Source: a bacterium (GTDB taxonomy: Bacteria; Krumholzibacteriota; Krumholzibacteriia; LZORAL124-64-63). Taken from it: 29,205 nucleotides of DNA. Position 1 is the first letter of the stretch. The number at the start of each line of letters is the position of its first letter. The position numbers and the translations under genes were made by a program. The stretch covers positions 1-29,205 of the forward strand of contig PIVY01000046.1 in assembly GCA_003353795.1 (NCBI GenBank), in the 5' to 3' direction. This document shows positions 5,134 to 28,225 of this stretch, in pieces. The notes beneath the pieces are model-generated. The model was not told where the DNA came from. It ran no database searches and worked only from the letters and a program-made list of their open reading frames with translations.

Positions 5134-7560
5134 TCAGGCGGCGGCGAGCCGCTGTTCGTCGCGGCGGTTGCGGAGTTTCTGGCTTCCGTAGACCGCTGCG
5201 ACCAGGACGATACCCAGGGCGTCGGTGATGAAGCCGGGCCAGAAAAGTAAGACCGTGGCCGCGGCGAGCAACAACCATTCGGCCCAGTTGGTTTCCCGGA
5301 TCAGATAGAGCATGGTCAGCGCCGAGAAGGCCATGGTGCCGAGGAAGGCCGAGAAGAGTGACTGGAACGACATCAGTGGCGTGGCGCTGGTCTCGGCGAC
5401 CACCCGGCCGGAGTCGATGAAGGTGCCACCGGAAACGGTCAGATTCTTGATGACGCCGTCGCGGTTCGCGGTGATGTCCTTGAACTCCTCGCCGTCCATC
5501 ACCGTGGCGATGCGGTCGCCTTCCTTGACGCTCGCGCCGGGCGCCACATGGACCTCGGTGACCATGGCCCCCATGATCTCGTCCTGGAACGTGGGTGCCA
5601 ATAACGGCTGGCCCTCGAAGAGGATCGCCGGGGTGAAGGCGAACAGGATGGGCATCACGTAGAGCAGCTTGGCGAACTTGAATGCCGTCCAGCCGGTCTT
5701 CCAGGGATCGCTGCCCGCGATGGCGGCGCCGGCGTACGCGGCCACGCAGACCGGTGGGGTGATGTTGGAGTCCTGGCTGAACCAGTAGACGATCATGTGC
5801 GCGGCGATGAGCACCACGCCCATTTCCATGAGCGGCGGCACGGCCAGGACGGCGGTGATCAGGTAGGCTGCCGTCACCGGTACGCCCATGCCCAGCACCA
5901 GCGAGGCCAGGCCCACCAGCAGGATCGCCGGCAGCAGGTGTCCGCCGGCCAGCGAGATGATGATGTCGGAGAACTTGAGGCCGATGCCGGTGAGCGAAAT
6001 GGTGCCCACGATGATGCCGATCACGCCGAGGGTGGCGCCGATGATGAGCGTATTGCGGGCGCCGGTCTGGATGGCTTCCCAGATCTCCCTGGGACCCATG
6101 CGGGTCTCCTTCTTGACCCAGCTCACGGCGATGCACGAGAGCGTGGCCCAGAAGGCGCTGTAGCCGGGCGACTTGCCATTGATCATGAGCACCGTGATGA
6201 TCACCAGCGGCATGACGAAGTACCACTGCTCCTTGAGGACCGCGGTCCAGTGCGGCGCGTCGGGATCCTGGATCCCCTCGATCTTGTGCTTCTTGGCCTC
6301 GAAATGGATCATGCAGAAGACCGAGAAGAAGTAGAGCAGAGCCGGACCGATGGCGATGAGCATGATGTGGGAATAGGGCGTCTCGGTGAGTTCGGCCATG
6401 AGGAAGCCGCCCGCGCCCATGATCGGTGGCATGAACATGCCGCCGATGGAGGCCGAGGGCTCGATGGCGCCGGCCACGTGGGGGCGGAATCCCGCCCGTT
6501 TCATGAGCGGGATGGTGAAGGCGCCGGTGGAGACCGTGTTGGCGATGGCCGAACCGGACACCGAGCCGAAGAGCGCCGAGGCCATGACCGCGACCTTGGC
6601 CGGGCCGCCGGTGGTCTTGCCCGCGAGGGCCATGGGAACGTCGATGAAGAACCGGCCGGCGCCCGATTTCTGCAGGAAGGCGCCAAAGAAGATGAACAGG
6701 ATCACGTAGGTCGCCAGCACGTTGGCCATGACCCCGAACACGCCGTTGGTCGTGAGGTAGAGCGCGGTGCAAAGGCGCTCGACGCCGAAGCCGCGATGGG
6801 AGATGACCTCCGGCATGTAGGGTCCGAAATAGGCGTAGCAGAGCATGCTGATGCCGATGAAGGTCATGGCCCAGCCGAGCACCCGGCGGCAGACCTCGAG
6901 GCTCAGGACGATGCCGACGACGCTCACCAGGGCGTCGAGTTCGTTCTCTGCGCCGGCGCGGTAATTGAGGTTCTCGAACTCGAAGATCCAGTAGGCCACG
7001 ACCCAGGCCGAGATCAAGGCGAGCAGAAGGTCGGAGAAGCTGGGGTACTCGGGGTACTTGCGCTCGGCCCAGCGATCGGCGTAGACGAGAACGGCGCCGA
7101 CGATCACCGCTCCGAGCCCGAGCCACCAGAGGCTCATGGCGTCGGCCAGTCCGGCACCGGCACCCTGCTCTGCCCAGACGCCACTCACCCGGGTCACGCG
7201 GTCATGAAACGTGGTGGCGTCGGGGAAGAAGAACCAGGCGGCCACCGCACTGGTGGTGACCGCGCCCACGAAGAGATTCAACGGGTACCGGAGCCAGTTC
7301 TTGCCCACCGGATAGAGCAGGAAGATCAAGATGAAGGTGATGAACACGTACACGCCGCGGTGGAACTGCGTGGCCACCGACGCCACGCCGGCGGTGTAGA
7401 AGTAGAACACCACCATGGCTCCAGCGAGACCGGCAATCAGGGCGTGCCACAATCCCTTGGGGGTGCGGGTGGTCTTGTTGTCCTTCTCGATGATCTGTTC
7501 GAGCTTCTTCTTGTCACCCGAGGACCCTGGTTCCGGGGCGGAAATGTCGCTGCTGGCCAT
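5134..7560 (-). CDS. TRAP transporter fused permease (TAXI-type 4TM/12TM fusion, DctQM-like), with a C-terminal soluble beta-rich insert
   Basis: 808 aa and highly hydrophobic multi-TM. GGAGA SD 5 nt upstream. The off-frame 802-aa ORF 4718..7126- is Arg/Pro-rich junk. Residues ~668-725 (TEVHVAPGASVKEGDRIATVMDGEEFKDITANRDGVIKNLTVSGGTFIDSGRVVAE) look like a biotinyl/lipoyl-type hammerhead barrel. Confidence 0.9.
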   Translation of the reverse strand: MASSDISAPEPGSSGDKKKLEQIIEKDNKTTRTPKGLWHALIAGLAGAMVVFYFYTAGVASVATQFHRGVYVFITFILIFLLYPVGKNWLRYPLNLFVGAVTTSAVAAWFFFPDATTFHDRVTRVSGVWAEQGAGAGLADAMSLWWLGLGAVIVGAVLVYADRWAERKYPEYPSFSDLLLALISAWVVAYWIFEFENLNYRAGAENELDALVSVVGIVLSLEVCRRVLGWAMTFIGISMLCYAYFGPYMPEVISHRGFGVERLCTALYLTTNGVFGVMANVLATYVILFIFFGAFLQKSGAGRFFIDVPMALAGKTTGGPAKVAVMASALFGSVSGSAIANTVSTGAFTIPLMKRAGFRPHVAGAIEPSASIGGMFMPPIMGAGGFLMAELTETPYSHIMLIAIGPALLYFFSVFCMIHFEAKKHKIEGIQDPDAPHWTAVLKEQWYFVMPLVIITVLMINGKSPGYSAFWATLSCIAVSWVKKETRMGPREIWEAIQTGARNTLIIGATLGVIGIIVGTISLTGIGLKFSDIIISLAGGHLLPAILLVGLASLVLGMGVPVTAAYLITAVLAVPPLMEMGVVLIAAHMIVYWFSQDSNITPPVCVAAYAGAAIAGSDPWKTGWTAFKFAKLLYVMPILFAFTPAILFEGQPLLAPTFQDEIMGAMVTEVHVAPGASVKEGDRIATVMDGEEFKDITANRDGVIKNLTVSGGTFIDSGRVVAETSATPLMSFQSLFSAFLGTMAFSALTMLYLIRETNWAEWLLLAAATVLLFWPGFITDALGIVLVAAVYGSQKLRNRRDEQRLAAA

Positions 7561-17896: not shown

Positions 17897-18835
17897 ATGG
17901 ACAAGCCCGCCGATATCGCCCGCTCCCTGTCCCGCCGGGGATTCCTGTTCACCTCGACCCTCGCGGCTGCCGGCGCTCTCGGTGCCCGGACAGCCCATGG
18001 TCAGTGCGAGCTCACCACCACTGACATCCTCGGTCCGTTCCACGTGGCGGATGCTCCCATGCGGACCGTCCTCGCCTCGCCCGACGAGCCCGGCGCCCGT
18101 CTCTTCATCGACGGCCGCGTTTTCGCGCGCGACTGCGCCGACCCCGTTGCCGGCGCCGTGGTGGACGTGTGGCACGCCACGGACGACGGCTGCTACAGCG
18201 TGCACGAGGCATGTCCCGACGAGGACCCCTTCAATTGCCGAGGCCAGATGATCACCGACGCGGCCGGGGCCTTCGCCTTCGAGACCATCCTGCCGGGGCG
18301 GTATCTCAACGGCGCCACCTTCCGACCGCGGCATCTGCACGTGATCTTCAGTCCCCCCGACGGCGCGGCCCTCACCACGCAGATCTACTTCGCCGGCGAT
18401 CCCTACATCGACGAGGACCGCTGGGCCAGCGATCCCGACGCCGCGGCCCGGATCATCCCGCTCATCGAGGATGGGGAGGCGTTTCGCGGTCTGCTGGAGA
18501 TCAATCTGGACGTGGATACCACGACTGCTGTCCCTGGCGACGATCACGGACTGCCCACGGCGACGACCCTGCTGCAGAACTACCCCAATCCGTTCAATCC
18601 GATGACCACGCTCCGTTACCAGCTCCGCGTGGCGGCTGCAGTGAACCTGGACGTGTTCACGGCCGACGGCCGGTTTGTGCAGACCCTGGTGAGCGAGCAC
18701 CAATCGACCGGTTACCATTCGGTCCGATGGACGGGTCGCGATTCGGCCGGTCGCGAGGTGCCCAGTGGGGTCTATCTGGCGCGATTGACGGCCGGTAGCC
18801 TCGTCGAGACCCGGAAGCTGCATCTCATTCGATAG
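17897..18835 (+). CDS. Tat-signal intradiol ring-cleavage dioxygenase-like protein with a C-terminal FlgD-Ig/T9SS-type sorting domain
   Basis: Twin-arginine motif SRRGFLF. Intradiol dioxygenase signatures VVDVWHATDDGCYS and FRPRHLHV. C-terminal LLQNYPNPFNPMTTLRYQL...SGVYLARLTAGSLVETRKLHLIR. GGAGG 6 nt upstream of the ATG. Confidence 0.85.
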   Translation: MDKPADIARSLSRRGFLFTSTLAAAGALGARTAHGQCELTTTDILGPFHVADAPMRTVLASPDEPGARLFIDGRVFARDCADPVAGAVVDVWHATDDGCYSVHEACPDEDPFNCRGQMITDAAGAFAFETILPGRYLNGATFRPRHLHVIFSPPDGAALTTQIYFAGDPYIDEDRWASDPDAAARIIPLIEDGEAFRGLLEINLDVDTTTAVPGDDHGLPTATTLLQNYPNPFNPMTTLRYQLRVAAAVNLDVFTADGRFVQTLVSEHQSTGYHSVRWTGRDSAGREVPSGVYLARLTAGSLVETRKLHLIR

Positions 18836-18852
18836 ACCGCATTCGACGCCAG

Positions 18853-18886
18853 ATCATTCCGTGGCAGTCAATCAGACTGCCTTTGA
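18853..18886 (+). terminator. Rho-independent terminator after the dioxygenase-like gene
   Basis: GGCAGTC-aatca-GACTGCC (7-bp stem) followed by TTTGATTTTAATTT. Confidence 0.6.
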
Positions 18887-19026
18887 TTTTAATTTCATAT
18901 CATGAAGTAAATAGCCGCCATTATCCCAACCTGCCGCCAGATCGCGTCATGGGGAACGATCGTCGGCTCTTCTTCGTCCCGCGGTGTGGCGGAGCCGGTC
19001 GCCGAATACCGTCCCAGAAAAAGCCC

Positions 19027-19072
19027 TTGACCAACGAAATGCCCTGATCTAAGCTTCACGACACGAAGTGAA
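19027..19072 (+). promoter_or_regulatory. Putative promoter of the microcompartment operon, with an overlapping inverted-repeat operator candidate
   Basis: TTGACC (19027-32), 17-nt spacer, TAAGCT (19050-55). The inverted repeat TTCAC-N8-GTGAA (19055-19072) spans the predicted transcription start. Confidence 0.35.
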
Positions 19073-19133
19073 TGTGCGGTCCGCGGGGGCGATGGAGCCG
19101 CTGTCGTCATGAGCCGGATATGGGTTTCATCAA

Positions 19134-19490
19134 ATGAAGGCAAACGATCTCGACGAGGTCCTGGGAATCCCCGCTCGGTTGGCCATCGTGGCGACCTTGA
19201 TGCCGGGACGGCAGCTGTCGTTCACCACACTTGGCGAGCAGACAGGAATCGCCGCCGGCAACCTGCACGTGCAGACGCGGAAACTCGTGGACGCGGGCTA
19301 CATCGTTGCCGAGCGGGGCAGGCAGGGTGGACGGGGCGTCACCCGATTCGAGATCACCGAACGCGGGAGGCTCCGATACCAGGAGCACGTGCGGAACCTG
19401 CGAGACGCCATCGAGGGACCTTTCGGGGTGGCTCGCGCGGCCACGGATTCCGGGCCGGTACGGCCGGGCGACCCCTCGAGGGTCTGGTAA
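19134..19490 (+). CDS. Winged-helix transcriptional regulator (HTH_34/ArsR-like wHTH)
   Basis: 118 aa. [48 protein letters not shown]...RFEITERGR matches the winged-helix DNA-binding (HTH_34) consensus. It is the first gene of the BMC operon. Confidence 0.8.
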
Positions 19491-19506
19491 TCATGCGAGG
19501 ATCGAG

Positions 19507-20805
19507 ATGATGATCGCCATTGGCGCAGATCACGGCGGATTCGAGCTCAAGCAGAAGCTGTTGAAGCACTTGCAGGGTCGGGGCCACCAGGTTCAGGACG
19601 TGGGGACCGGCTCCACCGATGCCGTCGACTACCCCGTCTTCGCCCGCAAGGTGGCCGAGGCCGTGGCCTCGGGAGCGGCCGAGCGAGGCATCATGATCGA
19701 CGGCGCCGGCATCGGCTCGTCCATGGTGGCCAACAAGGTGCCGGGCGTGCGCGCGGCCATGGCCTACGACGTGTCCAGCGCCCGCAACGGCCGCGAGCAC
19801 AACGACGCCAACCTGCTCACCCTGGGCGCGGGGCTCATCGGGGCCAACCTGGCCGCCCAGATCGTGGACGTGTTTCTGAATACAGTATGCAGCGAATCGC
19901 GCCACCAGCGCCGTGTGGCCATGATCGAGTCCGCCCCGACCGGCGGCGGCGCCACTCTCGGCATCTCGGACGCCGATTTCGCACGGGTCATCCAGCGGCT
20001 CGAATCCCTGACCGGCGATCGTGCTGGCCAGGCGGGTCCCTGCGTGGGCAGTTGCCCGGACACCGCCCGTCATTTCATCGGCCTCGGCGCCCGCCGCCTC
20101 ACCACTGGCCCCGGCAGCCCCGGCCGCATTCCCGAGGAACTGGCCCGCTACATCGACCACACCATTCTCAAGCCCGACGCCACCATCGAGATGATCGACA
20201 CCATCATCGCCGAGGCGCGCGAGCACGGTTTCCGTTCGGTCTGCGTGAACCCCTGCTGGGTGAAACGCGTGGCCGACGGCCTGCGCGGAACACGTGTGTT
20301 GACCTGCTCGGTGGTGGGATTTCCTCTCGGCGCCAGCGTCCCCGAGATGAAGGGCATGGAATCCCGCCGCGCCATTCGCGACGGGGCCAAGGAGATTGAC
20401 ATGGTCATCAACGTCGGTCGTCTCAAGGCCGGCGACGACGCCTACGTGCTGCGCGACATCATGGCCGTGACCGACGCCTGCCGCGACGGCAGTGCCGTGA
20501 GCAAGGTCATCATCGAGACCGCGCTGTTGACCGACGAGGAGAAGGTGCGCGCCTGTGAGCTGTCCAAGCGCGCGCGGGCCAACTTCGTGAAGACGTCCAC
20601 CGGATTCGCCTCGTCGGGCGCCACGGCCGAGGACATCGCGCTGATGGCCGGCATGGTGCATCCGGCCGGCATGGAAGTGAAGGCGTCCGGAGGCATCCGC
20701 ACCTTCGACGACGCCCGCCGCATGATCGACGCCGGCGCCACCCGTATCGGCGCCAGCGCCAGCATCGCCATCGTGGAAGAGGCCCAGAAGACTGCGAAAG
20801 TTTGA
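19507..20805 (+). CDS. Fusion enzyme: ribose-5-phosphate isomerase B (RpiB/LacAB) domain + linker + deoxyribose-phosphate aldolase (DeoC)
   Basis: I reset the start to ATGATG at 19507, with GAGGA 5 nt upstream and right after the regulator stop. The track ORF from 19231 overlaps the regulator out of frame. The RpiB domain runs [15 protein letters not shown]...GGG...RHQRRV. The DeoC domain has [23 protein letters not shown], the Schiff-base FVKTSTGF and VKASGGIRT. Confidence 0.9.
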
Positions 20806-20815
20806 GGGGACGAGC

Positions 20816-21436
20816 ATGGTCGACCTGAGAGCCTACTGCGTAATCGACAGCCTGCAGCCCCAGTTCGCCTCGTTCCAGGCGACCGTGGCCCAGGGGTTCC
20901 TGCCCAAGGTGGGGCAGGCCAGCCTGTTCGTGGAGATCGCACCGGGCATCGAGATCAACCGGGTCATGGACGTGGCGCTCAAATCCACGTCGGTGACACC
21001 GGGCATGCAGATCGTCGAGCGGCACTTCGGCATGCTCGAGGTGCACTCCGACAGTCAGGCCGAGGTACGGCAGGCGGGCATCTCCATCCTCGAGGCCCTT
21101 GAGCTCAAGGAGGAGGAGCGCCTCAAGCCGCGCATCGTCTCGGATCAGGTGGTGCGACATCTCGACGACCACCAGTGCATGCTCATCAACCGCATGCGCC
21201 ACGGCAACCTGATCCTCAGCGGCGAGACGCTCTTCATCCTGGAGTGCGAACCGGCCGCGTACGCCGCGCTGGCAGCCAACGAGGCCGAGAAGGCCGCGCA
21301 CATCAACATCCTCGAGGTCCGTTCGTTCGGAAGCTTCGGGCGCGTGTACATCGGCGGCGAGGAAAAAGACGTGGAAGTGGCCCGACCGGCGGCGGTCGCG
21401 GCCCTGGATTCCCTGAACGGTAGAACGATCAAGTAA
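20816..21436 (+). CDS. Tandem BMC-domain shell protein (BMC-T, pseudohexamer/trimer type)
   Basis: 206 aa. The second half ([28 protein letters not shown]...[23 protein letters not shown]) aligns position-by-position with the canonical BMC fold ([26 protein letters not shown]...GDVxAVxAA). The first half ([23 protein letters not shown]...[17 protein letters not shown]) is a diverged copy. GAGGGGA SD. Confidence 0.7.
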
Positions 21437-21450
21437 CAGGAGGAACGGCA

Positions 21451-21741
21451 ATGGCAGACGCTCTGGGTATGATCGAGTGCCGGTGTTTTTCGGCCACGGT
21501 GGAGGCCGCCGACGCCATGGTGAAGGCCGCTCGCGTGGATCTGGTGGGCTACGAGAAGACCGGTGGCGGCTACACCACCGCCATCGTGCGGGGCGACGTG
21601 GCCGCGGTGAAGGCCGCCTGCGAGGCCGGCCAGAACGCCGCCACCCGCGTGGGTGAAGTGGTGGCCGTGCACGTGATCGCGCGTCCACACTCCAACGTGG
21701 ACGCGGTGATCCCGTTGGGTCGCCAGACCGCCGAGGCGTAG
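21451..21741 (+). CDS. BMC-H hexameric shell protein (PduA/EutM/CcmK type)
   Basis: [57 protein letters not shown]...[17 protein letters not shown]. Confidence 0.95.
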
Positions 21742-21745
21742 ACCC

Positions 21746-22042
21746 ATGCTACTGGCACGGGTGCTGGGCCGGGTGGTGGCCACGCGCAAGGACGAGAAGC
21801 TCGAGGGCCTCAAGCTGCTCATGCTGGGCGTGGCGGGCCCCGACGGCAAGCTCACCGGCGCGAGCCTGGTCGCCGTCGATGCCGTGGGCGCGGGCGAGGG
21901 CGAGTACGTTCTCTATGCCGCGGGCTCGTCGGCGCGTCAGACCACCGTCACCGACCAGAAACCGGTGGACGCGGTCATCATGGCCATCGTGGACAGCTGG
22001 GACATCGAGGGCACCGAGAAGTACCGCAAGGGTAACGAGTGA
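21746..22042 (+). CDS. BMC-P pentameric vertex protein (EutN/CcmL/PduN family), copy 1
   Basis: MLLARVLGRVVATRKDEKLEGLKLLML...AVDAVGAGEGEYVLY. The stop overlaps the aldehyde dehydrogenase start (ATGA). Confidence 0.9.
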   Translation: MLLARVLGRVVATRKDEKLEGLKLLMLGVAGPDGKLTGASLVAVDAVGAGEGEYVLYAAGSSARQTTVTDQKPVDAVIMAIVDSWDIEGTEKYRKGNE

Positions 22043-23541
22043 TGGCGCGGCTCACCGACGCGCAGGTCGATCACATCGCCCGGGAACTCGCGGGGCGTCT
22101 CGGGGTTAGCGGTAAGTCGAACACATGGACCGACAAGACGATTACGGCGGCGATCAGGCCGGTCGCGGTGGCTTCTCCGGGCACCGCACCGGCCGCCGCT
22201 GTATCTGAACCCGGAAGCGGCGGCGTCTTCGCCACCATCGACGAGTGCGTGGCCGCTGCGCGAACCGCCTTCGAGGAACTGCGGGGCATGTCCCTGCAGA
22301 AACGCGCCGAGATCATCGCCGCCTACCGCGCCGCCATGCTGCGCGAGGCCGAGAGCCTGGCGCGCGAGGCGGTGCAGGAGACCCGGCTCGGTCGCGTCGA
22401 GCACAAGGTGATCAAGAACCGACTCGTGACCGAGGCCACGCCGGGCACCGAGATCCTGGTACCCAACGCCGCGAGCGGCGACGACGGACTGACGCTCATG
22501 GAGTGGGCGCCGTTCGGGGTGATCGGCGCCATCACGCCGACGACCAATCCCACCAGCACGATCATCTGCAACACCATCGGCATGGTGGCCGCGGGCAACA
22601 GCGTGGTCTTCAACGCGCACCCCAGCGCCAAGCGGTGTTCGCTGTCGACGGTGCGCCACCTGAACGCCGCCGCCGAGTCGGTGGGCGGGCCGCCCAACCT
22701 GGCGTGCGCGGTGGCCGAACCCACCATCGAGACCGCCACGGCGCTCATGCACCACAAGGGAATCAACCTGCTCGTGGTCACCGGCGGACCCGGCGTGGTG
22801 AAGGCCGCCATGAACAGCGGCAAGCGCGCGGTGTGCGCGGGTCCAGGCAATCCGCCGGTAGTGGTGGACGACACGGCCGATCTCGAGCGTGCGGGTCGTG
22901 ACATCGTGCATGGCGCCGGATTCGACAACAACGTCATCTGCGTGGACGAGAAGCAGGTATTCGTCACGGCGACGGCGGCGGATAAACTCCTCGATTCCAT
23001 GCGCGCGGCCGGGGCGTACGTCGCTTCATCCGATGAAGTCAGGCGCCTGGAGAAGCACATCTTCCAGGAGATCCGCGGCCCGCGCACCCACGGCGTGATC
23101 AACAAGCAGTTCGTGGGCAAGAACGCCGGGGTGATCCTGGCGGCGGCGGGCATCAAGACGGCCGGCGACGTTCCGCTCGTCGTGGCCGACGTGTCGGAGG
23201 ACCATCCGCTGGTCTGGAGCGAACAGCTCATGCCCGTGCTGCCGGTAGTGCGGGTGTCGCACGTGGCGCGGGGGATCAAGCTGGCGAAGGAGTCGGAGCA
23301 CGGGTTCGGGCATTCGGCCAGCATGCACTCCCACGACATCCAGGCCCTGAGCACCATGGCCCGCGAGATCAACACCAGCATCTTCGTCAAGAACGGGCCC
23401 ATCGTGGCGGGTCTCGCGGCCGGCGGCGAGGGCTTCACCAGCTTCACCATCGCCAGCCCCACCGGTGAGGGCATGACCTCGCCGCTCAGCTTCTCGCGGC
23501 AACGGCGGTGCGTGATGGTCGACCACTTCCGGATCGTGTAA
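22039..23541 (+). CDS. CoA-acylating aldehyde dehydrogenase (PduP/EutE-like) with an N-terminal encapsulation peptide and a Pro/Ala-rich linker
   Basis: 500 aa. N-terminal amphipathic helix LTDAQVDHIARELAGRL, then a ~45-aa A/P/G/S/T-rich linker. The ALDH core carries the catalytic Cys in GFDNNVICVDEKQ. The antisense ORFs 22323..23867- and 23026..24312- are shadows. Confidence 0.9.
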   Translation: MMARLTDAQVDHIARELAGRLGVSGKSNTWTDKTITAAIRPVAVASPGTAPAAAVSEPGSGGVFATIDECVAAARTAFEELRGMSLQKRAEIIAAYRAAMLREAESLAREAVQETRLGRVEHKVIKNRLVTEATPGTEILVPNAASGDDGLTLMEWAPFGVIGAITPTTNPTSTIICNTIGMVAAGNSVVFNAHPSAKRCSLSTVRHLNAAAESVGGPPNLACAVAEPTIETATALMHHKGINLLVVTGGPGVVKAAMNSGKRAVCAGPGNPPVVVDDTADLERAGRDIVHGAGFDNNVICVDEKQVFVTATAADKLLDSMRAAGAYVASSDEVRRLEKHIFQEIRGPRTHGVINKQFVGKNAGVILAAAGIKTAGDVPLVVADVSEDHPLVWSEQLMPVLPVVRVSHVARGIKLAKESEHGFGHSASMHSHDIQALSTMAREINTSIFVKNGPIVAGLAAGGEGFTSFTIASPTGEGMTSPLSFSRQRRCVMVDHFRIV

Positions 23542-23545
23542 CAGC

Positions 23546-24163
23546 ATGCAACAGGCACTGGCACTCCTCGAGTTCTCGGGCGCGGTGGCGGGCATCGCCG
23601 CCGTGGACCGCATGCTGAAAATGTCGCCCGTGGCGCTGCTGCGCTGCGGGACCGTGCATCCGGGTCGGTACCTGGTGCTGGTGGGCGGCTCGGTGGCGGC
23701 CACCGAGGAGGCGCACGCGGCAGCGGTGGCCGTGGGGTGCGAACTCGGCGCGTTGCATGACGAGGTCTGCCTGCCGGATCCGCATCCGCAACTGGCGGCC
23801 GCAGTCGGCGGAGATCGGCGCGCCGCCGAGGGTGAGGCGCTGGGCGTGATGGAGATCGCGACGTCACCGGGAATGCTTCGGGCGGTGGACGTCGCGCTCA
23901 AGGCGGTGCCGGTGGACCTGGTGGAGGTCCGGCTGGCCGATGATCTGGGCGGTCGCGCGCTGGCGGTGATCAGCGGCTCGCTCACCGACGTGCAGGAAGC
24001 GCTGGACATGGCTCGCGACCGTGGTGGCGAGACGGCCGGTTGGCTGGGTGGGACGGTGCTGCCGCGCCTCGACGACACCCTGCGCGACGTGCTGGGCGAG
24101 GGCACGAGTTTCCAGGCCTGCCGCTCGTGGGAACCCGCGGGCGCCGAGACGGTGGAGGAGTAG
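23546..24163 (+). CDS. Tandem BMC-domain shell protein, PduT-like (BMC-T)
   Basis: Two canonical BMC domains: ALALLEFSGAVAGIAAVDRMLKMSPVALL...GRYLVLVGGSVAATEEAHAAAV and ALGVMEIATSPGMLRAVDVALKAVPVDLVEV...GRALAVISGSLTDVQEALDMA. Confidence 0.85.
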   Translation: MQQALALLEFSGAVAGIAAVDRMLKMSPVALLRCGTVHPGRYLVLVGGSVAATEEAHAAAVAVGCELGALHDEVCLPDPHPQLAAAVGGDRRAAEGEALGVMEIATSPGMLRAVDVALKAVPVDLVEVRLADDLGGRALAVISGSLTDVQEALDMARDRGGETAGWLGGTVLPRLDDTLRDVLGEGTSFQACRSWEPAGAETVEE

Positions 24164-24166
24164 CGC

Positions 24167-24475
24167 ATGTTCCTTGGCCGCGTGATCGGAAGACTGGTGC
24201 CGGCGGTGGTGACCGCGGGCATGGAGGGGATCCCCCTCTTGTGGGTGCAGCCGCTGGACAAGTTCGGTGAGCCCGACGGGCTGGCATTCGTCTGCGCCGA
24301 TGGCACGCGCATGGCCGGGCCGGGCGAAACTGTCTACTGGGAAGCGAGTCGCGAGGCGGCGCTCACGCTGGAGCCGAGCTTCGTGCCGGTGGACCACGCG
24401 GTGGTGGGGATCGTGGACGACGTGCGGCTGGACGAGGTCGCCAAGCCGAAGCGGCGCAGGAGGAAGAAATCATGA
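24167..24475 (+). CDS. BMC-P pentameric vertex protein, copy 2, with a poly-basic C-terminal tail
   Basis: MFLGRVIGRLVPAVVTAGMEGIPLLWVQPLD... EutN/CcmL fold. Ends ...KPKRRRRKKS. Confidence 0.85.
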   Translation: MFLGRVIGRLVPAVVTAGMEGIPLLWVQPLDKFGEPDGLAFVCADGTRMAGPGETVYWEASREAALTLEPSFVPVDHAVVGIVDDVRLDEVAKPKRRRRKKS

Positions 24476-24735
24476 TCCTCGCGCGCGTCTGCGGCAGCCT
24501 CGTGTCGACCATCCATCACGACAGTATGAATGGGCGGAAGCTGCTGGTGCTCGACAAGCTTGATCAGGACGGTGAGCCGACTGGGGGGTATGTGATCGCC
24601 GTGGATACCGTGGGGGCCGGCGCCGGCGAGACCGTGATCATGCTGGACGAGGGGAACGGGGCGCGGCAGATCCTCGGCGAAGCGGATCTGCCGGTGCGGT
24701 CGGTGGTGGTGGGGATCGTGGATGAGGTGGGCTAG
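24472..24735 (+). CDS. BMC-P pentameric vertex protein, copy 3
   Basis: MILARVCGSLVSTIHHDSMNGRKLLVLDKLD...VIAVDTVGAGAGETVIMLDEG. Its start overlaps the copy-2 stop (ATGA). Confidence 0.85.
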   Translation: MILARVCGSLVSTIHHDSMNGRKLLVLDKLDQDGEPTGGYVIAVDTVGAGAGETVIMLDEGNGARQILGEADLPVRSVVVGIVDEVG

Positions 24736-24811
24736 CTCTGGCGTCCTCTACTTACCCGGCCTCCGACCTGCATGAAACTCCCACACGCGACAGAATCTCT
24801 TGCGGGATGAG

Positions 24812-24881
24812 CTCATCTCAACACCTCCGGGCTACACATAAGTAGCCTTTTCGAGATGTCGGAAAAAGGCAGGCAAGTCCA
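24812..24881. repeat. Left copy of a ~68-bp imperfect inverted repeat pair (partner at 28227..28294)
   Basis: The reverse complement of 24812-24881 matches 28227-28294 with 2 mismatches and 1 single-base indel over ~68 bp (TGGACTTGCCTGCC-TTTTCCGACATCTCGAAAAGG-CTTATGTGTAGCC-GGAGGTGTTGAGATGA). I aligned it by hand. Confidence 0.8.
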
Positions 24882-24933
24882 GACCCGGGTACTCGCGGGG
24901 TAACGAAACCGGGGGCCGCAGGGCCTCGATCGC

Positions 24934-25596
24934 CTAGTTCGCCGCCTGCGCTTCGGTCAGCCCGAACAGATCGAACGGCGGCTGCGCGAAGTTCTCGTGG
25001 AAGAGCACCGCGACCAGCACGACATAGCCGACGAAGGCCAGAATGATCACCGCCTGCACCGGCGACGTCTTCTGGATCTCCTGGCGCGATTTCACATCGC
25101 AAACCTCTCCCGGACAGTACTGGGCCTTGTCCCGGTAGATCAGCGAGTAGACCTTGCAGCCGATGCAGATCCCGAACGACGTCTCGAAGAAGAGGAAAAC
25201 CAGGCAGATCAGGCAGATCAATCCGGTAATGGGGCTGAACGAATTCACGACCACCTGCAGCGCGAACATGACCGTCGCCAGCACGATCCCGATGATCCAG
25301 GCAAACTTCTTCTGCTGGGCGCCGACGTATTCGGGGGTCTGGTTGCGCACGATCCAGCGACCCATGATCAGCGAGGGCGCATAGCGCGGATTGATCAGGA
25401 CCCGGATCAGGATGTCGGTCAGGAAGATGGTGACCGCGTACTTCAGCAGCGTGAAATCGCTCTTCATGATGGCCATCAGTATGGCGACGAACATCACGAC
25501 GAAGAGGATGCCGGCACCGGCGCGGATCTCGCGCTCGTTCAGGACGGGGATCTCGAAACCCGGTACCGTTTCGCCGAATTGAATGACCTTGCCCAT
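24934..25596 (-). CDS. Integral membrane protein, DUF4395-like (4 TM, conserved Cys pairs)
   Basis: 220 aa. N-terminus MGKVIQFGETVPGFEIPVLNEREIRAGAG, then hydrophobic helices. CIGC and CPGEVC motifs. GC somewhat lower than the window average. Confidence 0.65.
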   Translation of the reverse strand: MGKVIQFGETVPGFEIPVLNEREIRAGAGILFVVMFVAILMAIMKSDFTLLKYAVTIFLTDILIRVLINPRYAPSLIMGRWIVRNQTPEYVGAQQKKFAWIIGIVLATVMFALQVVVNSFSPITGLICLICLVFLFFETSFGICIGCKVYSLIYRDKAQYCPGEVCDVKSRQEIQKTSPVQAVIILAFVGYVVLVAVLFHENFAQPPFDLFGLTEAQAAN

Positions 25597-25741: not shown

Positions 25742-26137
25742 ATGAAAATTTACGATTGCCAGGAGGCACGTGAGAAATTGCGGCTGCCTGAGGCCGAAAC
25801 AGCCGGCGCGGTCGACGCCGACGAACCCGGATCCTCGGTCGGCCGCCTCGCCGCCCATTGCTGGGCCCTGCTCCTGGCGCGGATCTACGAGTGCCTGCCG
25901 CTCGCGTGTCCGCGGTGCGGCGAGCCGATGCGGATCATCGCGTTCATCCTGGACCGGTCACAGGTCGAGCGGATCCTGACGCACATCGGGGAGCCCGCGG
26001 AGGCGCCGGAGGTCCTGCCGGCGAGAGGGCCGCCGCAAGTGGAGCTGGAGTTCGGCCAGGTGGACCAGACAGCCGGTCAGGATGCCTGGCCGGAGATGGA
26101 TCAGACGGCCGGCGACGGTGGCGACATCGGGGGATAA
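25742..26137 (+). pseudogene. Remnant of an IS91-family (rolling-circle Y2 transposase) gene: only the C-terminal zinc-binding tail is recognisable
   Basis: RLAAHCWALLLARIYECLPLACPRCGEPMRIIAFILDRSQVERILTHIGEPAEAP matches the characteristic IS91/IS801/ISCR transposase C-terminus (RLSWAALLKRVFGIDVL-CPxCGGxMRxIAxIxDP-VIxKILxHLGLP). No HUH/Y2 catalytic region precedes it, and there is an in-frame stop at 25700. Confidence 0.55.
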
Positions 26138-26497: not shown

Positions 26498-28225
26498 ATG
26501 CAATACCGCTTCGGATTCTTATCCATTCTGATGGTCGTTTTCGTTGTCTTCGTCGCGGCCACCGGTTGCGACGATGGCGACGAGGCTCAAGATGGTGGGT
26601 TGATTGAACCTCCTGATCCGCCAGAGATCGTTCCCGGTGAGTTGGATCTCGAGTACGTCTGGTCAGGTCAAGGGGTCGACCTTCGCTGGTCCGCCTGGAC
26701 CGGCGACGAGGTGACTGGATACAGGGTCTACACCCAGCTCCTGAATTTTCCGCCCGTCTTGCGTGCGCTCACCGACGAAACATGGTTCATCGATCTGATG
26801 CCGATGGCGGGAGACCGGTATACGGCGACGGTGCAAGCGGTCGATGGCGACGACGTTGTGCTCGCGGAAACGTCGGAATTCACGTGGTCGATTCCGGGCA
26901 ACTACAAACGAGCGTCTCTGACGATCGCCAATGGAGACGAGTTCACAGACTCGCGCGCGGTTATGGTCCTCGTCGAGGTACCGTCAGACAGCATGTGGAT
27001 GTGGAACGGCCTTCCGGAGAACTCCGTCGGTGGTCGGTGGGAGGAGTTGCGTCACCATAGCGCGAGAATCCTCGATTGGCCGCTTGCGTTGCTCGACGAG
27101 CCAAAGGTCGTCACTGCTCGCTATCGGTCCAGCCTGGGACTGTTGCACGAGGTTTCCGACGACATCGCCGTTCAGCCTTTCAATCCGAACATTCGGTGTG
27201 ACGCTCCGGGGTTCGTCGCGGAACCGGTCGTCGATCTCTTGTTCGACGATCCGGCTGCACGATACGTCCGTGTGGCAAATACCGTGAACGAGCTGGGCCA
27301 AGCTCCCTGGCGCATCTTCGCCGATCGGCTGGAAGACTGGAATCTGCCGGACGACCCGGAACCTCACACAGTCAAAGTGCAGATGCGGAACGAATTCGAA
27401 CTTGTGTCCGGCGTCTATGAATCGACTCCCGTTCAACTGGATCTGGATCCTCCCGACCTATCCAACTTGTCAATGCAGCCGGTGGATGGCGCCGATGGAA
27501 TCGATGCCACATTGTCGCTCGCTTGGTCGGGAGCGAGTGACGCGCTGTCTGGTGTGCACGAGGTTGCCGTCTACTGTGATCGCGGCGGCCCGGCAACGAC
27601 GCTTGTGTATGATGGATCCGACGGCGGCTTTCAATTAGAGAATCTCATAGCCAACGAGGAGTATCGCTGGCGCCTGGAATTTCGCGACCTGGTCGGAAAT
27701 GTCGCCAGCGGGGACGAACAGTCATTCACTACGGGCGGCCACTTCGACCTGGTCACACTCAGTTTCGACCCAGAGGGTGAGCAGGTGGAAGCGCCGTCGA
27801 ATGTTGCCGGTGCGACGGGTACGATGTACCTGACGTGGCGCCACCCTAGCGTATCGACGCTCGGTACGGCTCTGGTACGGATCGTTCCGCCGGAGGGTGT
27901 TGGGCTGGTGTTTCACCCGCGTGATGGCTTCGAAGCAATCAATGGGGAAGGGCCAGACATCTATTTTATGTTTGGATCCTATGAGTTCGGAGATGCCAGT
28001 AGCATCTTACTGGCGGAACTCGAATACCAAGTCTATCAGGATGGCGCGACTGGCCCTGTTCGTGTAGGCCCCGCTGGTCCGCCCGACGAGTCCGGGGCGC
28101 CATTCCCGAATGTTCAGCCGCACATGACTTGGGGAGAATTCATCCATCTCGGCTATCCGCTGCGGCGGTCAGCGACGGACCCGGAGGAACTCACCGGAAT
28201 CGTGTGGTTCGGACCAGCGCCGTGA
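26498..28225 (+). CDS. Secreted lipoprotein with fibronectin-type-III-like domains, function unknown
   Basis: 575 aa. Signal/lipobox MQYRFGFLSILMVVFVVFVAATGC. FN3-like segments (VDLRWSAWTGDEVTGYRVYT; LSLAWSGASDALSGVHEVAVYCDRGG...EEYRWRLEFRDLVGNVASGDEQSFTT). Noticeably lower GC and more A/T-ending codons than neighbouring genes. Confidence 0.75.
   Translation: MQYRFGFLSILMVVFVVFVAATGCDDGDEAQDGGLIEPPDPPEIVPGELDLEYVWSGQGVDLRWSAWTGDEVTGYRVYTQLLNFPPVLRALTDETWFIDLMPMAGDRYTATVQAVDGDDVVLAETSEFTWSIPGNYKRASLTIANGDEFTDSRAVMVLVEVPSDSMWMWNGLPENSVGGRWEELRHHSARILDWPLALLDEPKVVTARYRSSLGLLHEVSDDIAVQPFNPNIRCDAPGFVAEPVVDLLFDDPAARYVRVANTVNELGQAPWRIFADRLEDWNLPDDPEPHTVKVQMRNEFELVSGVYESTPVQLDLDPPDLSNLSMQPVDGADGIDATLSLAWSGASDALSGVHEVAVYCDRGGPATTLVYDGSDGGFQLENLIANEEYRWRLEFRDLVGNVASGDEQSFTTGGHFDLVTLSFDPEGEQVEAPSNVAGATGTMYLTWRHPSVSTLGTALVRIVPPEGVGLVFHPRDGFEAINGEGPDIYFMFGSYEFGDASSILLAELEYQVYQDGATGPVRVGPAGPPDESGAPFPNVQPHMTWGEFIHLGYPLRRSATDPEELTGIVWFGPAP

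Follow-up and report, generated by a model that had tools for sequence, protein, structure and literature searches.

We analyzed a 29,205-nucleotide (nt) stretch of bacterial DNA, contig PIVY01000046.1 of assembly GCA_003353795.1, which we refer to as the window, and focused on an operon in it that encodes a bacterial microcompartment (BMC). The operon consists of nine intact, co-oriented open reading frames (ORFs) on the + strand, from 19134 to 24735 (Table 1). An earlier note on this DNA, made from the sequence alone, had proposed these nine genes, and our Pfam profile search was positive for all of them. Each product reaches the gathering score, in the order HTH_34, LacAB_rpiB plus DeoC, BMC, BMC, EutN_CcmL, Aldedh, BMC (two copies), EutN_CcmL, and EutN_CcmL. 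They correspond to a winged-helix regulator, a fusion of an RpiB-like domain to deoxyribose-phosphate aldolase (DERA), a CoA-acylating aldehyde dehydrogenase (AldDH), and six shell proteins. We conclude, with a probability of roughly 80%, that this is a metabolosome operon of the SPU3 subtype (SPU, sugar phosphate utilizing) in a Krumholzibacteriota-like genome, in which DERA and then AldDH would process 2-deoxyribose-5-phosphate (dR5P).

The genes are tightly packed, as had been described, but of the several ATGA overlaps claimed earlier we found only one, at the junction of BMC-P2 and BMC-P3 (24472-24475). The junction of BMC-P1 and AldDH reads TGATG or GTGA (22039-22044), and the remaining six junctions are gaps of 3 to 16 nt. 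The G+C content of the operon (0.66 to 0.70) is in line with that of the window and uniform across the operon and its surroundings.

Table 1. Features of the microcompartment operon and its upstream region (window coordinates)
Feature	Position	Strand	Basis or remark
O1, distal operator-like palindrome, TTTCATATCATGAAG	18893-18907	+	just past the terminator-like hairpin of the upstream gene
Promoter candidate (-35 TTGACC, 19027-19032; 17-nt spacer; -10-like TAAGCT, 19050-19055)	19027-19055	+	conserved geometry
O2, putative operator, CTTCACGACACGAAG	19054-19068	+	overlaps the -10 box and the likely transcription start
O3, putative operator, TTTCATCAAATGAAG	19125-19139	+	overlaps the regulator ATG (19134); 71 nt from O2
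Regulator, winged helix, 118 aa	19134-19490	+	HTH_34
RpiB-DERA fusion, 432 aa	19507-20805	+	LacAB_rpiB and DeoC
RpiB-like domain, residues 1-141	19507-19929	+	profile match
Linker amphipathic helix, encapsulation peptide-like, residues ~153-170	19963-20016	+	conservation and AlphaFold2
DERA domain, residues 210-432	20134-20802	+	profile match
BMC-T(dp), permuted tandem-BMC, double-stacking CcmP-like trimer	20816-21436	+	BMC
BMC-H hexamer, 96 aa, pore motif EKTGGGY	21451-21741	+	BMC
BMC-P1 pentamer (EutN/CcmL), 98 aa	21746-22042	+	EutN_CcmL
CoA-acylating AldDH, 499 aa from ATG 22042 (alternative GTG 22039)	22042-23541	+	Aldedh
AldDH N-terminal encapsulation peptide, LTDAQVDHIARELAGRL	22051-22101	+	precedes a variable-length Pro/Ala-rich linker
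BMC-T(s), tandem-BMC trimer of PduT fold	23546-24163	+	BMC (two copies)
BMC-P2 pentamer, 102 aa, basic C-terminal tail	24167-24475	+	EutN_CcmL
BMC-P2 C-terminal tail, AKPKRRRRKKS	24440-24472	+	11 aa, K/R rich
BMC-P3 pentamer, 87 aa	24472-24735	+	EutN_CcmL; start overlaps the BMC-P2 stop

For comparison, we collected related loci, one genome per species, using two stretches of the fusion (positions 62 to 69 and 81 to 88) as search patterns. This yielded at least 599 pattern matches, of which 514 were confirmed by tblastn, and we kept the best 80 of the 514. The fusion itself starts at ATG 19507. A mechanically called ORF starts at 19231, and we rejected that start on three grounds: the Pfam match begins only at its residue 95, a GAGGA Shine-Dalgarno sequence precedes ATG 19507, and a recorded protein of 432 aa is identical to the resulting product. 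From ATG 19507, the RpiB match begins at residue 2, and the RpiB domain has no N-terminal extension.

The DERA half of the fusion is a bona fide deoC equivalog. It scores 256 bits against TIGR00126 (cutoff, 117), lies above the cutoff for PF01791 as well, and matches solved deoxyribose-phosphate aldolases with an E value of 1e-70. At the catalytic positions of the solved enzymes, the domain has Asp298, the Schiff-base Lys362, and Lys392, all invariant in 78 to 80 orthologues. The RpiB half aligns end to end with RpiB structures (E. coli RpiB, 1nn4), and there the catalytic base Cys66 is replaced by Asp65 and the proton-shuttling Thr68 by Ala67, while His99 is kept as His98. Thus, of the catalytic residues on which the earlier note had staked its interpretation, the DERA lysine is present and the RpiB cysteine and threonine are not. 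The domain fails as a canonical RpiB at these two positions, yet it passes the TIGR01120 cutoff (149 versus 138.65). The same pattern, with the histidine kept, has been reported for all SPU ribose-5-phosphate isomerases (RPIs) (Dwyer, Sutter, Kerfeld 2024, PMC11585597). The missing cysteine and threonine are a family-wide SPU trait and no defect of this locus.

We found that the RpiB domain is conserved as much as DERA. Mean identity over the 80 loci is 73% for RpiB and 70% for DERA, and 35% of positions in each are at least 97% invariant. The substrate-binding residues Asp8, His9, His98, Asn99, Arg132, His133, and Arg136 are invariant in 79 to 80 of the 80 loci. Conservation of this kind is more than would be expected of a pure scaffold. 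We suggest that the domain could serve as a packaging or ligand-binding module or as an isomerase of altered chemistry.

The two domains are separated by 68 residues of low conservation (44%), apart from an amphipathic helix. This helix follows the pattern (L/I)SDxD(L/I)xR(I/V)(V/A)xRLxx(L/I)(L/V)G, is conserved in the fusion orthologues, and resembles the encapsulation peptide (EP) motif of the AldDH. AlphaFold2 places a helix at residues 155 to 168 inside a low-confidence linker. Lying between the domains, it would target the fusion to the compartment.

The AldDH is of the EutE/PduP acylating type (NF011927, 623 bits; cutoff, 403), and its catalytic cysteine, Cys301 in 500-aa numbering, is kept in 64 of 64 orthologues. 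Its N-terminus reads as a textbook EP. The motif L(T/S)DxQVDxIAxxLAxRL, followed by a linker of variable length, is present in the 65 AldDH orthologues with N-termini listed, which bears out the EP assigned to this enzyme earlier. The AldDH gene also contains a perfect palindrome, CTTCATCCGATGAAG (23024-23038; ASSDEV, residues 329 to 334). We rejected it as a conserved site: 0 of 23 orthologues have it, and it is private or due to chance.

The six shell genes encode one BMC-H, two kinds of trimer (a gated, CcmP-like BMC-T(dp) and a cysteine-less BMC-T(s)), and three BMC-P proteins. BMC-P2 and BMC-P3 are adjacent, with the ATGA overlap, and BMC-P1 lies apart, which is the arrangement of a BMC-P triplet. 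BMC-T(dp) aligns over its full length with beta-carboxysome CcmP (E value, 4.5e-76) and with the Haliangium ochraceum T2/T3 trimers (E values of about 1e-66 to 1e-69), and all 76 orthologues retain the Glu68-Arg69 gating pair. Unlike CcmP, it falls just below the CcmP equivalog cutoff (304 versus 340) and sits in a catabolic DERA/AldDH operon that lacks RuBisCO. At 90% identity, BMC-T(dp) falls into a cluster of 445 members; most of the 15 named ones listed are called hypothetical protein, and three are called EutL or EutS. With such labels, the type is easily missed in automatic annotation. The other shell proteins likewise miss their equivalog cutoffs (EutM, 115 versus 133; CcmL, 91, 35, and 78 versus 125).

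BMC-T(s) had been described as PduT-like, and this holds for the fold but not for the iron-sulfur ligand. At the position of Cys38, the [4Fe-4S] ligand of PduT, it has His38 (codon 23657-23659), and a histidine is found there in 53 of 59 orthologues. The score against the PduT equivalog TIGR02526 is 69 bits, below the cutoff of 250. We rejected a PduT-like Fe-S function because the ligand cysteine is missing. Since His38 is conserved, three histidines would line the pore of the trimer, where they may act in metal binding or gating.

These features agree item by item with the published description of SPU3, the subtype of a class to which the earlier note had assigned the locus. Sutter 2021 (Nat Commun 12:3809, Supplementary Data 2) describes SPU3 loci as carrying an AldDH, pfam02502, and pfam01791; in 12 loci, a fusion joins pfam02502, as its N-terminal part, to pfam01791 and contains an internal EP-like sequence. 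According to the same source, the AldDH bears its EP at the N-terminus, and the shell includes a standard BMC-H, a BMC-P triplet, and a CcmP-like BMC-T(dp). The window matches the cataloged loci in all of these points and further in having two adjacent genes in the BMC-P triplet, no phosphotransacylase (PTAC), and a BMC-T(s) that lacks both a PduS partner and a pore cysteine. It differs in its Krumholzibacteriota-like host, which is absent from the 2021 SPU3 phylum list, and in two features that we did not find in the accessible parts of the descriptions, namely, the HTH_34 regulator with its operator and a lysine/arginine (K/R)-rich tail on BMC-P2.

We concluded that the locus is an ordinary, canonical member of a cataloged and partly characterized type, not a new system, and therefore that the novelty claims made for it fail. 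The shell set, one BMC-H, BMC-T(dp), BMC-T(s), and a BMC-P triplet, had been called unusual and is the standard SPU3 set. The fused architecture, given as the earlier note's own inference, is recorded with its internal EP in the 2021 Supplementary Data 2. The statement that the type had never been characterized experimentally no longer holds, since assays of SPU6 enzymes appeared in 2024: DERA was purified and is active on dR5P, RPI is inactive on ribose-5-phosphate (R5P), and the two form a complex (PMC11585597). In addition, shell self-assembly was reported for an SPU-type archaeal compartment in a 2025 preprint (PMC12747264).

The assayed SPU6 system, from Chloroflexi bacterium GWB2_54_36, shares with the window DERA as signature enzyme, with the same Asp/Lys/Lys, and the change of RPI Cys66 to Asp; in SPU6, DERA associates physically with RPI. 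It differs in that its DERA and RPI are separate proteins held in a complex, each with its own N-terminal extension. Its AldDH belongs to another branch and carries the EP at the C-terminus, its regulator is of the GntR/UTRA type, its BMC-T(dp) is of another clade, and it has no BMC-T(s).

The compartment most likely serves to degrade deoxyribose phosphate derived from DNA. We propose that dR5P enters the shell and that DERA would cleave it to glyceraldehyde-3-phosphate (G3P), which would exit to glycolysis, and acetaldehyde. The co-encapsulated AldDH would then convert the trapped acetaldehyde to acetyl-CoA and NADH. The same scheme, dR5P to G3P and acetaldehyde to acetyl-CoA, is proposed by Dwyer 2024 (Commun Biol 7:1562), who suggests that acetyl-CoA may exit via the BMC-T(dp) pore in PTAC-less subtypes. 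Our data support the DERA-to-AldDH logic put forward earlier, as judged from the invariant deoC equivalog residues and from an acylating-type AldDH that retains its catalytic cysteine. The window encodes no PTAC, alcohol dehydrogenase, or PduS, and CoA and NAD+ are therefore probably exchanged through the large gated BMC-T(dp) pore.

Further, indirect support comes from the genes that neighbor the cassette in related loci. We found a PNP_UDP_1 nucleoside phosphorylase in 16, a PfkB sugar kinase in 13, a TonB-dependent receptor in 11, a PGM/PMM-type mutase in 9, and an exo/endonuclease in 7. Directly upstream in 11 loci without HTH_34 is a SorC-family regulator with a sugar-binding domain. The SorC family includes the dR5P-responsive DeoR of Bacillus subtilis. 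These neighbors and the SorC regulator fit deoxynucleoside or DNA scavenging. The window has none of the nucleoside phosphorylase, PfkB kinase, PGM/PMM-type mutase, SorC/DeoR-type regulator, and exo/endonuclease genes seen in other lineages (examples of these five are at L043, 229-1401; L047, 13307-14497 and 2474-4408; L076, 1155-2546; and L079, 7002-7967).

We then considered how the operon could be controlled. Upstream of the regulator gene, an intergenic region of 298 nt contains the palindrome YTTCA-N5-YGAAG three times (O1 to O3), and the whole window has 5 matches versus 0.15 expected. Upstream of orthologous regulators, we found 70 sites of the form CTTCA-N5-TGAAG (at most 1 mismatch) in 53 regions versus 0.42 in shuffled sequences. 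Many of the 53 regions share a geometry: a TTGAC box, then, 26 to 29 nt on, an operator overlapping the -10 position, and about 71 nt from this operator a partner, which in the window's clade overlaps the regulator start codon. The window fits this pattern exactly, with a distance of 27 nt from the TTGACC box to O2. Operator sites accompany the regulator gene, being present in 46 of 47 loci with an HTH_34 gene versus 4 of 21 loci without one.

A promoter at 19027 had been suggested earlier, and conservation supports it: a TTGAC box at the same distance from the operator recurs in related loci. The candidate itself matches only 8 of 12 consensus positions, and a sigma-70 consensus scan of 18700 to 25100 called no promoter and gave terminator-like hits no more often than in shuffled sequences. 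The HTH_34 protein has no recognizable ligand domain and no cysteine. We infer that it is a dimeric, autoregulating repressor that occludes the promoter: it would bind the CTTCA-N5-TGAAG palindromes over the -10 box and over its own start codon and hold expression off.

The same palindrome also occurs inside genes. In more distant lineages (L019 to L056; for example, L020, 8101-8115), ACTTCA-N5-TGAAGC lies within codons 34 to 39 of the fusion gene. There are 28 perfect copies at this one position, encoding the peptide GTSS[HNR]EAV with AT-ending codons in GC-rich genomes. In Woeseiaceae loci, the 3' end of the regulator gene harbors another copy, 210 nt upstream of this one. The codon 34 to 39 palindrome is absent from the window's clade.

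Several points weigh against an SPU3 metabolosome that acts on dR5P. An R5P isomerase has no obvious place beside DERA, and the SPU6 RPI is inactive on R5P. DERA activity has been demonstrated for the SPU6 orthologue only and for no SPU3 enzyme, and the in vivo substrate of SPU compartments is itself putative. Among the window ORFs scanned, none would supply dR5P or recycle a cofactor, and the supply of NAD+ and CoA is assumed. The regulator has no visible effector domain to explain induction. The AlphaFold2 model of the fusion is only moderate, with a mean predicted local distance difference test (pLDDT) score of 69.5 and values below 50 over most of the linker. Finally, the conservation of Asp65 and Ala67 across the 80 loci is partly by construction because positions 62 to 69 were a search pattern.

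The best-surviving alternative keeps the architecture but changes the substrate: the RpiB domain would be an active isomerase, with Asp65 as the base, that turns some other (deoxy)sugar phosphate into the aldose cleaved by DERA, and the fusion would channel two steps. Such an isomerase would account for a domain that is conserved like DERA, keeps its binding residues in nearly every locus, and passes the rpiB equivalog cutoff. A carboxylate base works in Mycobacterium tuberculosis RpiB, and the order of domains in the fusion is the same as the order of genes in the unfused loci described. However, the SPU6 RPI, which carries the same Cys-to-Asp change, has negligible R5P activity, and LacA, which has Asp at this position, is a non-catalytic partner. 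Moreover, dR5P has no hydroxyl at C2 and therefore cannot arise from an aldose-ketose isomerization, and SPU5 loci, as described, lack an RPI entirely. We consider this alternative unlikely.

A second alternative takes the automatic shell annotations at face value and makes this an ethanolamine utilization (EUT) or carboxysome-type compartment. By NCBIfam, the shell proteins are indeed best named EutM, CcmL, EutN, and CcmP, the BMC-T(dp) cluster carries EutL or EutS labels, and some SPU3 genomes are described as having a satellite EUT module. However, no shell equivalog cutoff is reached, the signature enzyme of the operon is DERA, and the window contains no EutBC, RuBisCO, or carbonic anhydrase. 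We regard this alternative as very improbable and, for the window, effectively refuted. The least credible reading takes the cluster for a horizontally acquired remnant that is decaying or not expressed: the cassette is spread over many phyla in identical order, which points to frequent transfer, but the nine ORFs are intact, the catalytic and gating residues and the promoter and operator elements are conserved, the G+C content is that of the window, and both the operon and rho have their nearest relatives in Krumholzibacteria.

We next examined the basic tail of BMC-P2. Within its coding sequence lies AGGAGG (24458-24463), the Shine-Dalgarno sequence of the BMC-P3 gene. Among the 80 loci, only five close relatives have a terminal K/R cluster on BMC-P2, and other lineages have short acidic tails, which rules out the K/R tail as a general SPU3 feature. 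Among 119 clusters of close BMC-P2 homologues, 52 have at least 4 K/R in the last 12 residues, behind Pro/Ala spacers, in tails that range overall from 17 to 56 residues. The terminal clusters read PRRxRRxP or KRRRRKKS after a Pro/Ala spacer of variable length.

In Asgard SPU-type compartments, the P2 pentamer has been described as carrying DNA-binding K/R tails of 36 to 137 aa, a feature said to be unobserved in bacterial compartments (bioRxiv 10.1101/2025.11.08.687404). The bacterial tails are a possible counterexample to that statement. The Hodarchaeales compartments of that study, for which a DNA-scavenging role was proposed, resemble the window in their DERA and AldDH core, their BMC-P set, and the K/R-rich C-terminal extension of P2. 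They differ in that their tails are long and shown to bind DNA, whereas the tail in the window, a candidate for DNA binding, is 11 aa long, with relatives reaching about 56 aa. In addition, the fusion partner of the archaeal DERA is a flavoprotein domain rather than RpiB, and the archaeal BMC-T(s) keeps a CPGK Fe-S motif with MNdh present, whereas the window has His38 and neither PduS nor MNdh. By analogy, the P2 tail might tie the SPU3 compartment of this Krumholzibacteria-related clade physically to a polymeric substrate and, with the HTH_34/operator circuit, make a self-contained, transferable DNA-scavenging module; we offer this tentatively and think it rather doubtful. Relative to the accessible parts of Sutter 2021 and Dwyer 2024, both the HTH_34 regulator with its CTTCA-N5-TGAAG operator and the P2 K/R tail are new in this analysis.

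The surroundings of the operon contain no further BMC-related enzyme among the ORFs scanned (no PF06130, PduS, TPI, EutBC, or RuBisCO). The other large ORFs scanned encode a PAS histidine kinase, a TRAP transporter, a prolyl oligopeptidase, Rho, a DeaD helicase, a secreted dioxygenase, and a DUF4395 protein. The gene upstream of the operon (17897-18835) encodes the secreted dioxygenase-like protein, with a C-terminal FlgD_ig domain that had been called a type IX secretion system tail, and is separated from the operon by a terminator-like hairpin (18863-18881) and T-run (to 18891). Further away, an 808-aa ORF on the - strand (5134-7560) combines a DctM TRAP-transporter domain with weaker C-terminal matches to Biotin_lipoyl, FxsA, and DUF3394 and is either an unusual fusion or an ORF-boundary artifact. 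On the 3' side, there is a weak hairpin, GGCTAC-N6-GTAGCC followed by TTTT (24830-24851), and folding of the intergenic region from 24730 to 24935 gave no structure beyond that of shuffled sequences (z = 0.04). Downstream, between 25000 and 28300, the G+C content falls to 0.59 to 0.61, and ORFs of 575 aa (26498-28225) and 131 aa (25742-26137) have no Pfam match.

The nearest relatives of the operon are mostly from Candidatus Krumholzibacteriia, at about 78% identity for the fusion and up to about 90% for shell proteins, and nearly all taxon-named relatives of the window's Rho are from the same group. Since both point the same way, the locus looks native to a Krumholzibacteriota-like genome, in keeping with the high-GC lineage proposed earlier and with a lineage of FCB type (Fibrobacteres-Chlorobi-Bacteroidetes). 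In titles and abstracts, we found no literature concerning microcompartments in this phylum. More widely, at 72% identity or above, the database contains more than 120 clusters that share the two-domain architecture of the fusion. We found the fused cassette in all of the best 80 of 514 loci (78 matched across both domains, and two contigs end inside the gene). Gene order is identical to that of the window in 40 of them, which have the nine genes, and in 16 that lack only HTH_34 (eight genes); the other 24 are cut by a contig end but consistent, and none deviates. The hosts, by record title, include Krumholzibacteriota, Gemmatimonadota, Acidobacteriota, Eisenbacteria, Latescibacterota, Fermentibacteria, Woeseiaceae and other Gammaproteobacteria, Planctomycetota, Zixibacteria, Marinimicrobia, Calditrichota, and others.

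The locus extends a compartment type known from 26 phyla by one more lineage, Krumholzibacteriota-like. As a rigid module, the fused RpiB-DERA cassette keeps an invariant gene order, and it is far more widespread than the fused SPU3 loci cataloged, of which Sutter 2021 lists 12 and Dwyer 2024 counts 20. Its RpiB-like domain, supposedly inactive, keeps a whole binding pocket under purifying selection, which sharpens the question of its role. The operator, promoter, and regulator model for the cassette is testable. If the proposal for the P2 tail is true, this tail would be the bacterial counterpart of the DNA-binding K/R tails of the Asgard archaea.

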